Positions 2,648-6,859 of a stretch of 64,000 nt of DNA are shown here, one piece after another (the first letter of the stretch is position 1; each line of letters begins with the position of its first letter). Source of the stretch: Solirubrobacterales bacterium (GTDB lineage: Bacteria; Actinomycetota; Thermoleophilia; Solirubrobacterales; Solirubrobacteraceae); NCBI GenBank assembly GCA_027315115.1, contig DAHUYQ010000010.1, positions 28,679 to 92,678 of the forward strand, read 5' to 3'. The notes beneath the pieces are model-generated. The model ran no database searches, was not told where the DNA came from, and was given only the letters and a program-made list of their open reading frames with translations. The position numbers and the translations under genes were made by a program.

Positions 2648-3014
2648 GCGTTCGCCTGGAACGGTCTTCTCAGGAGCGGCCCGACCCCGACCCCATCACA
2701 GGTTCGGCGGGGAACGACCTGGTCCCACGCGCGGGTGATCGTGTCGAGCTCGCGGAGCACGGTCTGGTCCCAGCCGTAGGACCACTTCTGGTCGAGGTCG
2801 GCTCGGGATCGGTCCCACACGTAGGGGCTTGCTCGGGGCTCGATCGCGGGCAGGAATTGCCAGCCCACTCTGAGCCTGTCGAGCTCATCGGGAGGCCACG
2901 ATAGCTCACGGCACCCCGGCGCTTGGCACGCGACGAGGTGTCCAAACGATCGGTGCCGGGCAAGATTGGGGCAGCGGGCTTTTGCCCGGCCACACGCTGC
3001 CGACGCGCAAGACG

Positions 3015-3302
3015 ATGAGCAAGCAACGACCCAGAGACGCTCGCCCCGCCGGCGACGGCGCCGCCTACGGCCTGCTGCTGCTCCGCATCGGCCTGCCGGT
3101 GAGCCTCGCCGCCGCCGGCATCGTCCTGCTGCTCGTCGGGCAGGCCGCGATCGCGATCGTGCTCCTCGGCACCGCGATCATCGCCGTCCTGGTCGGCTTC
3201 TTCGCCCGCATGACCAACGAGAGCGACCTCGACCGCGAACGTGAGGAGCAGGCAAGAAGCACCTTCATGCGCACGGGCCGTTGGCCGGGGAGACGGAGAT
3301 AG
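3015..3302 (+). CDS. Small two-TM membrane protein, unknown function
   Basis: Two hydrophobic helices, then ESDLDREREEQARSTFMRTGRWP; GC3-rich codons. Confidence 0.65.
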   Translation: MSKQRPRDARPAGDGAAYGLLLLRIGLPVSLAAAGIVLLLVGQAAIAIVLLGTAIIAVLVGFFARMTNESDLDREREEQARSTFMRTGRWPGRRR

Positions 3303-3369
3303 CTCCGGCCGGTTGCGCCGGGGAACGCCCGCCGGAGGCGCTGGCCTCGTAGACTTACGGTGTCGCCCT

Positions 3370-3460
3370 GGAGGGGTGGCAGAGCGGTTGAATGCGGCGG
3401 TCTCGAAAACCGTTTCGGGGGTCTAAACCTCCGACGAGGGTTCGAATCCCTCCCCCTCCG
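3370..3460 (+). tRNA. tRNA-Ser(CGA)
   Basis: Acceptor stem GGAGGGG/CCCCTCC, anticodon arm gcggt-CT-CGA-AA-accgt, long variable arm, GGTTCGAATCC T-arm; CCA not encoded. Confidence 0.97.
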
Positions 3461-3590
3461 TTGCCGGGCTTCGTGGGCCTGGATTGTGGCTCTACGGAGC
3501 CAAAACGTGGCCCTGCGATAGGGCAGGGGCGTTCGGCTCGTTTTCAAACCAAGGCACGCTACGGCAAGCTGGTGGCTCGGCCGCTGTCCA
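3458..3590 (+). repeat. Cassette leader repeat, copy 1 (starts at tRNA 3' end)
   Basis: Similar to 4604-4735; identical 25-bp core gttcggctcgttttcaaaccaaggc at 3531-3555 and 4675-4699; both begin ccGTTGCCGGGC. Confidence 0.85.
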
Positions 3591-3770
3591 TGCGGTTGCT
3601 GCCCCAGATTTGGCTCTGGGAAGCCGGGCCGTGGCCTGCGTTGAGGCGTGCCCGTGTCGGTGCCCGCTGAGAAGCGCTGGCGGGGGCTCCAACGGGGCAC
3701 CGGCCATGCCTGGTGGCGAGCACGACGTTCACGGCCTTCAACGCCCACTTCTGCTCGGTAGACTGAAGCC

Positions 3771-4007
3771 GTGAGTACAGCGCGAGCGAGCAAGCCCAAG
3801 GACCACGATCTGGTTGTCGCTCCTGACGGGAGCATCCCTGCCGAGCAGCTTGAGAGCCTCGGCGTATCGCCTGGCACCCATCTGCGCGTGGTGGCGGCGA
3901 GCCCGCCTGGGACGCTCGCAGGCTCGCTACCGCAACTCCCGGATCTGACCTGGGAGGAGTTCGAGCAGGCGAGCGCGCTCGCGACGCATGACCTCACCGC
4001 TACGTGA
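3771..4007 (+). CDS. Antitoxin (AbrB/MazE-like, VapB type)
   Basis: 78 aa; DGSIPAEQLESLGVSPGTHLRV resembles the AbrB fold; GTGA overlap with the PIN toxin. Confidence 0.7.
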   Translation: MSTARASKPKDHDLVVAPDGSIPAEQLESLGVSPGTHLRVVAASPPGTLAGSLPQLPDLTWEEFEQASALATHDLTAT

Positions 4008-4402
4008 GGGTTCTCGCCGACTCACACGCGGTCGTCTGGTACTTGCAGGGCTCAGACCGCTTGTCCGACCGCGCTGCGCAGGCACTCACGGAGTGCGAAG
4101 AAACGGATGGCATCGTAGTCTCGGTCGCCACTCTGATCGATCTGTGGTACGTGACCCAGACGACACGCAAGCTGACTGAGGCACACCTGGCCGGGGTGCG
4201 AAGCGTGCTGCTCTCCTCGACGGCGTTCACCCTTCACCCGATCGACCTGGCCGTCGTGGACGCCACGACCTCGATCGCACGAGACCTGCTCGCCGACCCC
4301 TGGGACCGCTTCATCGTCGGGACCGCCAGTGCGCTGGCCCTGCCGCTGGTAACCAGAGATGAAGCGATCCACGACGCGCAGATCGTGCCTGTCATCTGGT
4401 GA
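4004..4402 (+). CDS. vapC: PIN-domain toxin (VapC family)
   Basis: VLADSHAVVW, SVATLIDL, DPWDRFIVGTA, LVTRD acidic PIN tetrad pattern. Confidence 0.88.
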   Translation: MRVLADSHAVVWYLQGSDRLSDRAAQALTECEETDGIVVSVATLIDLWYVTQTTRKLTEAHLAGVRSVLLSSTAFTLHPIDLAVVDATTSIARDLLADPWDRFIVGTASALALPLVTRDEAIHDAQIVPVIW

Positions 4403-4480
4403 GAAGCGATTCAACGGAGTAGATCGTTAGGTCCGGCTCGCCGCCGGTTTCTGCGCGCCGCTAAGGGATCAGCGCACACG

Positions 4481-4506
4481 GCGTAGCGCCTCTGCGTAGC
4501 GCCTCT
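4481..4506. repeat. 13-bp tandem duplication
   Basis: gcgtagcgcctct x2. Confidence 0.8.
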
Positions 4507-4536
4507 GCGGCGCGACGCCGCGCCTCCTGTCCAGCC

Positions 4537-4610
4537 GGCTCCATCAGCGCCTCCAGCACGCGCTCCAACGCGGCGGCAGGGTTTGCAACCTGTCCCGGTC
4601 TCCCCGTTGC
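4537..4610 (+). repeat. Cassette trailer repeat, copy 1
   Basis: 71/74 identical to 5324-5397; ends TGCAAC-N16-GTTGC. Confidence 0.92.
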
Positions 4611-4735
4611 CGGGCATTGTGGGTCGGTTCGCGGCTTTAGGAAGCCAAACGCTGCCTTGCGACAGCGTCTGGGTGTTCGGCTCGTTTTCAAACCAAGGCG
4701 GGGCTACGGGACGCCCGTGGCTCGGCTGCGGTCCA
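4604..4735 (+). repeat. Cassette leader repeat, copy 2
   Basis: Similar to 3458-3590, including the 25-bp identical core. Confidence 0.85.
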
Positions 4736-4768
4736 CGCGGTGGCCCAGTTTCGTAATACAATTGCTGG

Positions 4769-5005
4769 ATGGAGGTCCATCCGTCGGCGCGTAAGCACGG
4801 CATGGTCGACGAGGACATAGAGCACGCAGTGGAGCACGCAATGGCAATTGACGACCAAGACGACGACACCCGGCTCTATCTCGGGCCGAGTCGTAGCGCG
4901 GCGCTGCTCGAGATCGTCGCGATCGCACGGGAGGATGGCTCGGAGTTGGCGATCCACGCGATGCCCATGCGAGCGAAGTATCAGCGGCTGCTGCCTGGAG
5001 GCTGA
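4769..5005 (+). CDS. Putative toxin (BrnT/RelE-like small actinobacterial toxin)
   Basis: 78 aa MEVHPSARKHG...LYLGPSRSAALLEIV...AIHAMPMRAKY, upstream of an RHH gene; AT-rich gtaatacaattg operator/-10 just upstream. Confidence 0.65.
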   Translation: MEVHPSARKHGMVDEDIEHAVEHAMAIDDQDDDTRLYLGPSRSAALLEIVAIAREDGSELAIHAMPMRAKYQRLLPGG

Positions 5006-5007
5006 AG

Positions 5008-5286
5008 ATGGCTGAGAAGACCTACGGACGGACGGCAAGCGGCGCCCCGATCACCGATGACCTCGTAGACAAGCTGGCTGCCGAGGCGGAGGCCGGGTAC
5101 GACGTGCAGCAGACGCTTCGCCGGCGCGGCGGGCGTCCGCCGATCGGCTCTGCCGCTGCCAGCGTTGAGTCTGTGCGGCTCGACCCGGAGCTCAGAGACG
5201 CGCTCGCGCGCAGGGCAGAGAGCGATCACGAAACAGCTTCGTCGGTGATCCGCAAGGCGTTGCGCGAGTACCTCAAGGCCGCCTGA
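5008..5286 (+). CDS. Ribbon-helix-helix (CopG-type) antitoxin
   Basis: RRGGRPPIG...SVRLDPELRDALARRA....SSVIRKALREYL RHH pattern. Confidence 0.82.
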   Translation: MAEKTYGRTASGAPITDDLVDKLAAEAEAGYDVQQTLRRRGGRPPIGSAAASVESVRLDPELRDALARRAESDHETASSVIRKALREYLKAA

Positions 5287-5323
5287 GCGAGGCCGCGGCC
5301 TTCCGTCGCGCCTCCCCCCCACG

Positions 5324-5397
5324 GGCTCCATCAGCGCCTCCAGCACGTACTCCAACGCGGCGGCAGGGTCTGCAACCTGTCCCGGTCTCCCCGTTGC
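5324..5397 (+). repeat. Cassette trailer repeat, copy 2
   Basis: 71/74 identical to 4537-4610; CTGCAAC-N16-GTTGCAG is a perfect 7-bp inverted repeat. Confidence 0.92.
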
Positions 5398-5493
5398 AGG
5401 TGTTCGTGGGCGCGTGAGGTTTGGCGCGCTTGTCACGTCGAGAGGCGGGGCGGATACGCGCGATCCGTCTCAAGCGCTGAGGATGATGGTGTT

Positions 5494-5622
5494 GTGCCTC
5501 AGATCAGCGTCTTCTACGGCATCGTCATCACGATGTACTTCTACGATCACGAACCGCCGCATTCGAACTGGAGCCGAGCGAAGGATGGCGGAGCTCCCGA
5601 GCCGATCGAGCCGCTGCCGTAA
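5494..5622 (+). pseudogene. DUF4160 (HicA-like toxin) gene with in-frame internal deletion
   Basis: Manual translation MPQISVFYGIVITMYFYDHEPPH|SNWSRAKDGGAPEPIEPLP joins the family N-terminus directly to its C-terminus (42 aa); not in the ORF track. Confidence 0.75.
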
Positions 5623-5631
5623 AATGGGCTC

Positions 5632-5895
5632 GTGGACGTTGTGAGGATCACTTCGGTCGAGGTGCTCGGTCACTATCGGCTGCGGATCGGCTTCAGCGAT
5701 GGCATCTCCCGTGATGTCGACCTTACGGGCGAGCTGCACGGCCCCGTCTTCGAGCCGCTTGCCGACCCCGGCTTCTTCGCGCAGGTTCGCGTGGACGACG
5801 AGCTGGGAACGGTCGTATGGCCCAACGGCGCCGACCTCGACCCGCTCGTGCTGCACGGCGACTTCGAGCCGGCGTCGCGCCTCGCGCATCGCTGA
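5632..5895 (+). CDS. DUF2442 family antitoxin
   Basis: YRLRIGFSDG...VFEPLADPGFFAQV...TVVWPNGADLDP. Confidence 0.88.
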   Translation: MDVVRITSVEVLGHYRLRIGFSDGISRDVDLTGELHGPVFEPLADPGFFAQVRVDDELGTVVWPNGADLDPLVLHGDFEPASRLAHR

Positions 5896-5946
5896 ATCTC
5901 CCCGGCACGGCAGTGGCGGCGATGGCCGCGACGTATGCTGGCCCTG

Positions 5947-6393
5947 ATGTCACGCGCGATCGAGGAGCGCAACAGGCGCATGCTGCGTGCCCGCGACACG
6001 ATGGATCGCGCGTTCGCCAAGCCGCTGGACGTGGCCGCGCTCGCGCGTGTCGCGCACGCCTCGCCCGCGCACTTCAGCCGCCAGTTTCGCGCCACCTTCG
6101 GCGAGACTCCGCACCGCTACCTCCAGCGCCGCCGCGTCGAGCGCGCGATGGAGCTTCTGCGCGAAACGATGGACCCCGTCACCGAGATCTGCTTCGACGT
6201 CGGCTTCAACAGCCTTGGCACCTTCAGCCGCACGTTCCGCGAGATCGTCGGCGAATCGCCCTCGGCCTATCGGGCCGGCCGCGGCGGTGGGTGCGAGGCT
6301 GAGCAGGTGCCGGCCTGCTGGGCGATGGCGTGGACGCGGCCGGCCGGCAGGACAGCAGTTTCGGAGAAGCGCGCCGCCGGCTCGGTGGCCTAG
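5947..6393 (+). CDS. AraC-family HTH regulator (DNA-binding domain only)
   Basis: SPAHFSRQFRATFGETPHRYL, EICFDVGFNSLGTFSRTF. Confidence 0.92.
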   Translation: MSRAIEERNRRMLRARDTMDRAFAKPLDVAALARVAHASPAHFSRQFRATFGETPHRYLQRRRVERAMELLRETMDPVTEICFDVGFNSLGTFSRTFREIVGESPSAYRAGRGGGCEAEQVPACWAMAWTRPAGRTAVSEKRAAGSVA

Positions 6394-6403
6394 CGTGCCA
6401 ACC

Positions 6404-6859
6404 ATGTTCAAGCGAATAACTCACACCTTCATCCATGTGCTCGACCAGGACCAGGCGCTCGACTTCTACGTCGGCAAGCTCGGCATGGTGGTGCAAGTAG
6501 ACGCCGACCTCGGCTTCATGCGCTGGCTGACGGTCTCCCTCCCCGACCAGCCGGAGCTTCAGCTCGGCCTGATGCTGCCGGGGCCGCCGGCCTACGACGA
6601 CGCGACAGCCGAGCAGATCAGGGAGCTGGTCACCAAGGGCGCCGGCGGCGGTGGCGTGATCTTCGAGACCGACGACTGCCAGCGCACCTTCGAGCAGCTC
6701 CGCGCCGCCGGCGTCGAGTTCACGCAGGAGCCGACCAAGCGCTTCTACGGAACCGACTGCGCGCTGCGCGACCCGTTCGGCAATCCGATCCGCTTCACGC
6801 AGCCCCCGGACGGGCCGATCGTAGTGCCCTCACCCGAGGAGCTTCGCGCGCGGGGATGA
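6404..6859 (+). CDS. VOC/glyoxalase family protein
   Basis: HTFIHVLDQDQAL.FY, FETDDC, GVEFTQEP..RFYG.DCALRDPFGN. Confidence 0.9.
   Translation: MFKRITHTFIHVLDQDQALDFYVGKLGMVVQVDADLGFMRWLTVSLPDQPELQLGLMLPGPPAYDDATAEQIRELVTKGAGGGGVIFETDDCQRTFEQLRAAGVEFTQEPTKRFYGTDCALRDPFGNPIRFTQPPDGPIVVPSPEELRARG

Follow-up and report, generated by a model that had tools for sequence, protein, structure and literature searches.

Tandem islands at tRNA and transfer-messenger RNA (tmRNA) genes, with integrase-less passengers among them, are already known, and the closest described case is that of the Dehalococcoides ssrA islands (DsiB; McMurdie et al. 2011, PMC3146451), which lie in tandem downstream of a small stable-RNA gene and are bounded by repeats of its 3′ end. 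Those islands carry a serine recombinase of about 540 amino acids, encoded on the reverse strand beside attL, and many of them are without an integration module and are viewed as cis-mobilisable (PMC3146451). Here we describe an array of small gene cassettes that is likewise arranged in tandem behind a stable-RNA gene, tRNA-Ser(CGA), in a window of 64,000 nucleotides (contig C24, positions 28679–92678) from a Solirubrobacterales genome (GCA_027315115.1; assembly of 3.3 Mb in 65 contigs, 90.65% complete). We propose, with a probability of roughly 0.7, that its units 1 and 2 belong, as non-autonomous cassettes, to a family of integrative elements, specific to Solirubrobacterales, that uses a large serine recombinase (LSR) to insert site-specifically at tRNA 3′ ends. 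The Dehalococcoides islands differ in having a tmRNA target, a plain 20-bp direct repeat, sizes of about 10–30 kb and a six-gene integration module, and they have neither a recombinase open reading frame (ORF) across the attachment (att) site, nor a coding tail at attR, nor cassettes of about 1 kb (PMC3146451).

Several other systems share parts of this organization. The ‘suicidal’ integrases of the SSV1/pTN3 type also have the att site inside the recombinase gene and a tRNA target, with integration partitioning the gene (PMC8371274). However, they are tyrosine recombinases (PF16795) of Archaea in which the split removes the N-terminal part and inactivates the enzyme, and a 2021 review describes self-splitting integrases as exclusively archaeal and as tyrosine recombinases (PMC8371274); here the enzyme is a bacterial LSR (Actinomycetota) that is not a member of PF16795, and only a C-terminal tail of about 40 amino acids would be exchanged for a tRNA-antisense tail. 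The cis-mobilizable elements (CIMEs) that arise in the accretion of integrative and conjugative or mobilizable elements (ICEs and IMEs) similarly have no recombination genes, have retained attL and attR, and are found at tRNA genes next to related elements in tandem, but are usually single remnants of several kbp derived from tyrosine-integrase ICEs (PMC5704250), whereas the units here are about 1 kb long, have standard ends and form arrays of up to five. Chromosomal integron arrays, and clusters of attC sites lacking integron-integrases (CALINs), also consist of tandem units of about 1 kb with one or two genes, are frequently rich in toxin-antitoxin systems, and may be without a recombinase. 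In contrast to these, the present arrays have no IntI, attC hairpin or attI, and are instead anchored at a tRNA 3′ end and delimited by a coding tail and a left arm of 95 nt. The Tycheposons of Prochlorococcus reportedly also target tRNA genes, pile up in tandem, generate partial-tRNA repeats and leave cargo-only remnants; they are said to differ in their recombinases and hosts and in their larger size, with neither a split recombinase gene nor standard mini-cassettes described.

The features of the array are listed in Table 1. The discriminator G of the tRNA is position 3460 and unit 1 begins immediately after it, and the motif GTTGC at 3460, 4606 and 5393 delimits a unit 1 of 1146 bp and a unit 2 of 787 bp, reproducing the coordinates of an initial annotation made from the sequence alone. 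The left ends (leaders) of the two units share one identical 25-mer, as that annotation had noted, and are 78–80% identical over about 140 nt, the annotation having put the leader at about 130 bp. The right ends (trailers) are as nearly identical as had been claimed, with three differing positions between 4537–4606 and 5324–5393, up to GTTGC, and with 91% identity maintained over 87 nt. Both units have a mimic of a tRNA 3′ end at their distal end, in the orientation of the tRNA, and contain no recombinase gene. In trailer 1 the mimic core occupies 4579–4606 (GGGTTTGCAACCTGTCCCGGTCTCCCCG), and a reverse-strand ORF, conserved at 4485–4586, runs to a stop codon at 4461–4463; the equivalent ORF of trailer 2 is frameshifted after LMEPVG. 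Unit 3 had been counted as a third cassette on the strength of a partly similar start; the likeness is real for the first 19 nt or so, but there is no trailer, and the segment, a questionable third cassette, is either a decayed cassette or native flanking DNA. As originally reported, no integrase lies near the array: there is no tyrosine or serine recombinase match on the array-bearing part of C24. The tRNA is the sole match in an Rfam scan of 3000–6500, with no other known RNA family.

Table 1. Features of the array, of related copies in the same genome, and of two complete elements in relatives. Coordinates are those of the window unless a contig is named.
Feature	Location	Strand	Evidence or remarks
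tRNA-Ser(CGA), anchor (attB side)	3369..3460	+	ARAGORN (end 3460/3461); Rfam RF00005, 59.1 bits
Unit 1 left end (leader), member of the ~95-nt left-end family	3461..3600	+	78% identity to leader 2; aligns with left ends of 9 other genomes
Putative VapB-type antitoxin, 78-aa ORF (unit 1)	3771..4007	+	Overlaps vapC by 4 nt; no significant family match
PIN-domain toxin (VapC-like), unit 1 cargo	4004..4402	+	PF01850, E=6e-9
Unit 1 right end (trailer)	4461..4606	-	Trailer repeat; coding signature; phase shared with LSR-tRNA junctions
Unit 2 left end (leader)	4607..4744	+	Identity to leader 1; left-end alignment
Putative toxin partner of the RHH gene, 78-aa ORF (unit 2)	4769..5005	+	No family match
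Ribbon-helix-helix (RHH) antitoxin (RHH_1; YlcI/YnfO_N-like), unit 2	5008..5286	+	Profile match
Unit 2 right end (trailer)	5290..5393	-	Trailer repeat; core 5366-5393
Unit 3, leader-like start followed by DUF4160/DUF2442 ORFs	5394..5895	+	Sequence comparison, Pfam; no matches in related loci
Truncated DUF4160 ORF (unit 3)	5494-5622	+	42 aa; matches only the first 17 of 65 Pfam profile positions
DUF2442 ORF (unit 3)	5632-5895	+	Profile match
Copy behind tRNA-Ser(GGA)	C24:28143 down to 26575, just upstream of the window	-	Cargo DUF6338 membrane protein
Copy behind tRNA-Ser(GCT)	contig C35		Cargo MNT/HEPN pair
Leu-type trailer variant	C10:85902-85991		2 kb downstream of tRNA-Leu(CAA) at C10:88013-88096
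Complete element, anchor tRNA-Ser(GGA)	G209:C21		Same family as this genome; LSR intact, reads into tRNA; nearest same-orientation trailer 25.6 kb away
Complete element, anchor tRNA-Leu(TAG)	G268:C1		Same genus as this genome; LSR intact, reads into tRNA; nearest same-orientation trailer 14.5 kb away

Copies of these ends are few in the genome as a whole and all are linked to tRNA genes. The entire assembly contains only six or seven, each downstream of a tRNA-Ser or tRNA-Leu gene and always on the tRNA strand, with three of the four tRNA-Ser genes (CGA, GGA and GCT) and one tRNA-Leu gene bearing them; tRNA-Ser(TGA) of this genome has no such ends. Chance recurrence, or a generic intergenic repeat such as a repetitive extragenic palindrome or a miniature inverted-repeat transposable element, is thereby ruled out, the copies being target-linked rather than dispersed. 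A profile of the trailer peptide has matches in 39 of 301 genomes of the order Solirubrobacterales. When one genome per GTDB species was scanned it gave 38 loci, every one of them within that order (Solirubrobacteraceae, Conexibacter, Thermoleophilaceae or unclassified Solirubrobacterales). These are same-orientation arrays of one to five units behind tRNA-Ser, -Gln, -Lys and -Leu genes; a same-strand tRNA gene was present on the expected side in 22 of the 38 (17 Ser, 2 Gln and 3 Lys), the search being restricted to the fetched flank. Altogether there are dozens of units in many genomes in which a left end of about 95 nt and a right end of about 140 nt surround unrelated cargo, with lengths (n = 46) of 417 to 4577 bp, a median of about 1.2 kb and a tight mode at 0.65–1.4 kb.

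These comparisons bear out the initial suggestion that cassettes have been gathered at a tRNA 3′ end, in an array that is a relic or is served in trans, and that the units are not simply duplicates: the leader and trailer flank different cargo at several tRNA genes, both in this genome and in relatives, and the arrays differ from species to species instead of having an identical fixed arrangement, the region downstream of tRNA-Ser(CGA) being different in every relative examined. The unit 2 cassette is itself found elsewhere, with about 77% nucleotide identity: it occupies the first position behind tRNA-Ser(GCT) in three species (L160, L169 and L177/L045) and the second position in a stack of five units in L151; its slot is thus the first behind tRNA-Ser(GCT) in other species and the second behind tRNA-Ser(CGA) here. 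A phage origin was also considered and rejected; a scan of viral contigs with a 17-mer gave chance matches only and the peptide profile found nothing.

The trailer combines two components, a tRNA mimic and a coding tail. The last 28 nt or so resemble the T-arm and acceptor strand of the tRNA (GGGTTTGCAACCTGTCCCGGTCTCCCCG compared to GGGTTCGAATCCCTCCCCCTCCG), and every trailer of this genome ends in TCTCCCCG, with TTG following across the junction. The end of the core follows the anchoring tRNA, reading CTCCCCG at Ser, GCCCAG at Gln, GGCGCA at Lys and CCGCA at Leu loci, a match that is characteristic of an att site carried by the element in imitation of its target. The distance from the T-loop-like motif to the junction is 23 nt in the tRNA and 28–29 nt in the trailers. 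The half-sites of LSR attP sites are reportedly about 5 bp longer than those of attB sites, and the longer trailer spacing agrees with this difference, although it proves nothing. Aligned by eye, the trailer core matches the 3′ end of tRNA-Asp at least as well as that of tRNA-Ser, which suggests that it may have descended from an Asp-type att site. Between two adjacent trailers of a relative in the same genus (G268; L333 16560–16720) there is also a T-arm-like hairpin, GGGCGGG-ATGCGAA-CCCGCCC, possibly a degenerate att core.

The second component is a reverse-strand frame of 35–45 codons with the consensus (T/A/M)GRSGRRANPxxxLDRLVEALMEPVGRxARRRAAEAIRx and a stop codon. Among 34 copies, gathered for this purpose by protein profile, which is a caveat to the comparison, the entropies at codon positions 1, 2 and 3 are 0.73, 0.58 and 1.34, the third being about twice as variable; the median proportion of synonymous differences (pS) is 0.60 compared to 0.26 for nonsynonymous differences (pN), and pN is the smaller of the two in 99.8% of pairs. 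In the other two frames the relation is the opposite, and the trailer frame thus looks to be coding and under purifying selection. The Ser- and Gln-type trailers, which are the majority, are mostly without a start codon at or near the core and have ACG or ACT instead, whereas those of the Lys and Leu types have an in-frame ATG exactly at the junction (beginning, for example, MRSRVQR, MRRAGQR or MVGASGQ); in the Leu-type variant of this genome the ATG is created precisely there (MRSRVRDRNPEGLLEDLMEPVARQARRR). The tail peptide belongs to no Pfam family, and its motif has 124 matches in 1.84 billion representative proteins, all of them at the C-terminal ends of ORFs of arbitrary length. In about 7 of 80 trailers the spacer is 1 nt shorter and reads GTTCEP in frame with the tail, this being the frame of the Asp-related LSR remnants that lie beside trailers in L144 and L180.

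One of the 124 matches, P0096, has Recombinase and Zn_ribbon domains in an ORF running into a trailer. It was rejected as proof of an in-frame fusion of an LSR with the tail, as it is a frameshifted and N-terminally truncated LSR, and served as a lead only; in three further loci a Ser-type trailer core is immediately adjoined by the remnant of an LSR 3′ end. The intact relatives of P0096 adjoin, in antisense orientation, the tRNA-Asp 3′ end or exact tRNA-Asp repeats of 43–44 nt; this is so in genomes and, among the 63 soil-metagenome loci that could be determined, in 45. In a metagenome scan for intact Ser-type LSRs of this clade, all 80 loci proved to be of the tRNA-Asp type or undeterminable. 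A more distant clade, typified by the LSR of G209, adjoins tRNA 3′ ends in antisense orientation at 17 of the 19 loci, and at others besides, with targets that include tRNA-Ser(CGA/GGA/GCT), -Leu(CAG/GAG/TAG), -Lys, -Ala, -Pro and -Asp. All 19 of its junctions are in one phase, in which the T-loop is translated as G-F/L/I-E-P; three of these phases (G-I-E-P) were assigned by eye, the pattern having flagged them as doubtful. This is also how the trailer ORF is phased at its own junction (x/CG GGG AGA… compared to x/CG GAG AGG…, the stroke marking the junction).

Two relatives contain autonomous elements with both the cassette ends and a recombinase (G209 and G268, Table 1); a look for a recombinase gene near other copies had been suggested in the initial annotation. 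The LSR of G209 and the first LSR of G268 have Resolvase, Recombinase and Zn_ribbon domains; in each element the LSR is at the left end and a trailer is at the right end, and the G268 trailer core TGGTGGGAGCG mimics the tRNA end TGGTGCGGGCG. When the ends are joined in silico the frame is continuous in both, giving ORFs that end in ESRLAGRSGRRANLDRLVQLLMVAVGRDARRQAAAAFWRATL and SPTMMVGASGQGANPAPDLDILLELLMEPVGRKARRRAADALLTKI, each followed by a stop codon. At the sequence level, therefore, the 19 junctions and the two joins support a self-splitting arrangement, in which the LSR ORF would continue across attP. Because these joins are in frame and the junction phase is shared, the trailer is read as most likely a detached C-terminal segment of an LSR gene together with the right attachment site.

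In the mechanism that we propose for the autonomous element, the LSR gene would lie at the left end, antisense to the tRNA, with its frame running across the attachment site. Integration would detach the last 35–45 codons of the gene and place them at the far right end beside the tRNA-3′-end mimic, so that the trailer would be a right-end package (attR, or the P arm) and the leader a conserved left arm (P′). The integrated LSR would then end with residues from the tRNA antisense strand instead of the conserved tail, and the excised form would encode an LSR with the conserved tail of about 40 amino acids. Successive insertions at the tRNA would shift older units outwards and generate a tandem array. 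The cassettes in the window would have retained the two arms and their toxin-antitoxin cargo, and would be movable only by an LSR supplied in trans; with no matching LSR detected in this assembly, the array probably either lies dormant or depends on such a supply.

A number of observations weigh against this proposal. Junctions of the tRNA-Asp-specific LSR clade occur in all three reading phases and the right ends of Asp-type elements lack a tail ORF, so the split-tail design is not universal; moreover, in L144, L180 and L189 the LSR remnants beside Ser-type trailers do not share the frame of the adjoining tail. The right end of the G209 element is putative, being the nearest same-orientation trailer, at 25.6 kb. 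The assembly of this genome, 90.65% complete, yielded no LSR from either clade, and the leaders have no significant nucleotide similarity to LSR 3′ coding ends. The repeat copies of the array are only 78–91% identical, with no recent movement evident, and the conservation of the unit 2 cassette in the first slot behind tRNA-Ser(GCT) of three species fits long vertical inheritance. Units 1 and 2 are judged old and non-autonomous because of this divergence and the missing LSR, and the same two facts, the conservation of unit 2 and the decayed LSR fragments present inside arrays would also be accommodated if the units were footprints only, i.e. fixed relics of full-length LSR elements that lost their interiors by deletion and were never mobile cassettes. 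We consider this unlikely, as there are dozens of units with both standard ends and a tight size mode, for which independent deletions would need the same stop points; the unit 2 cassette also occupies a different tRNA or slot here and in L151, and the leaders are not detectably derived from an LSR. That the trailer ORF is an independent small gene beside the attachment site, encoding for example a recombination directionality factor or a regulator, seems to us about as improbable. The ATG at the junction of Lys- and Leu-type trailers, purifying selection in copies with no LSR nearby, and the out-of-frame Asp-related remnants would suit such a gene, but the start-less Ser- and Gln-type majority, the phase that the tail ORF shares with all 19 LSR-tRNA junctions, and the continuity of both circular joins argue for a segment of the LSR gene instead.

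As to which recombinase is involved, an LSR is likely, rather than a tyrosine integrase or an integron integrase. Cis-mobilisable elements served in trans by a tyrosine integrase or XerC/D would be in keeping with the use of tRNA 3′ ends, which are classical targets of such enzymes, and this genome has at least six tyrosine recombinase genes; but no tyrosine integrase gene (PF00589) lies within 10 kb of the arrays in 15 genomes (G268 has only three such genes), and the full elements carry LSRs at the junction, making this explanation very improbable. Even less credible is an integron-like array, in which the trailers would be folded sites of the attC type (GCAAC-N16-GTTGC) and the tRNA end would serve as attI. 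The cassette size, tandem order, toxin-antitoxin cargo and G/TT junction do resemble those of chromosomal integrons; however, no IntI-type gene was found, nor any PF00589 match near an array in the 15 genomes, and the GCAAC/GTTGC inverted repeat is missing from most other trailers, which read GGTTCGCACGTCG. The trailer is furthermore protein-coding, and not the non-coding imperfect palindrome of an attC site, and the left ends are conserved over about 95 nt, unlike those of integron cassettes.

If the LSR reading is correct, three features would be new: a serine recombinase gene that is cut in two when its element integrates, a possible means of controlling the direction of recombination by swapping the C-terminal tail of the LSR, and a standard cassette format of about 1 kb in which a soil lineage, abundant and uncultured, stacks toxin-antitoxin and defence genes behind its tRNA genes. 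Repeated retargeting among tRNAs (Asp, Ser, Leu, Lys, Ala and Pro) is also seen in the LSR family, with the att mimic changing alongside, which bears on the evolution of LSR specificity. It is tempting to regard the system as a bacterial LSR counterpart of the archaeal ‘suicidal integrase’, in which a tail swap could switch the direction of recombination and the att arms have been reduced to tRNA-anchored, integron-like toxin-antitoxin cassettes of about 1 kb; this combined proposal is tentative, and we put its chances at somewhat below even.

The leaders belong to a family of about 95 nt that is kept across genomes and anchors, with a palindrome GGCTY-NNNN-RAGCC, and terminate in TGTGCGAACC, an inverted copy of the GGTTCGCAC of the trailer; our guess is that the leader is a P′ arm or an accessory binding site. 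An origin as a remnant of an LSR 3′ coding end was rejected for want of nucleotide similarity, as was a structured RNA, the 13 left ends folding to one short and nearly invariant hairpin with negligible covariation, and a consensus scan for promoters and terminators found none. A 76-aa ORF across leader 2 and trailer 1 was likewise rejected as a conserved gene, having no Pfam or database relatives and being broken in the frame of leader 1 by two 1-nt indels.

The cargo is unrelated between the units, as originally described, and the PIN and RHH assignments stand, whereas the putative VapB and the unit 2 toxin have no family match. Unit 1 has the arrangement of a type II toxin-antitoxin system of the VapBC type, with the PIN toxin gene overlapped by 4 nt by a small ORF upstream. 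In unit 3 the DUF4160 ORF is probably a truncated gene beside its intact DUF2442 partner. Across the arrays 86 cargo ORFs are mostly PIN, MNT/HEPN, DUF433, MazF, HicA and AbiEii genes, with a few insertion sequence (IS) transposases and no recombinase family among the 25 families listed. Because transposases of the IS630 type (DDE_3) and the IS701/IS4 type (DDE_5) sit inside arrays (L171 7688–8785, L188 7637–8743 and L151 1760–3040), these evidently also gather insertion sequences. In the MNT/HEPN cassettes of L022 (9375–10289) and L189 (1556–2485) the tail ORF, MNT and HEPN genes are co-directional and overlapping, and look as if they are co-transcribed from the array-distal side.

Soil metagenomes contain abundant elements of 5–7 kb (L220–L228, L229–L308) in which the LSR reads into tRNA-Asp(GTC), some of them with exact flanking repeats of the tRNA-Asp 3′ half (43–44 nt). 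A tadA-like deaminase gene lies just upstream of the window, and its stop codon is adjoined, in inverted orientation, by the trailer of the tRNA-Ser(GGA) cassette (L021 12111–14234, corresponding to C24:26110–28233). In 10 relatives a same-strand tRNA-Ser(CGA) gene lies 20–85 nt beyond tadA. The gene preceding tRNA-Arg(ACG) in relatives is tRNA-Ser(GGA) and not tRNA-Ser(CGA). This layout suggests a rearrangement whose breakpoint was at an att site.

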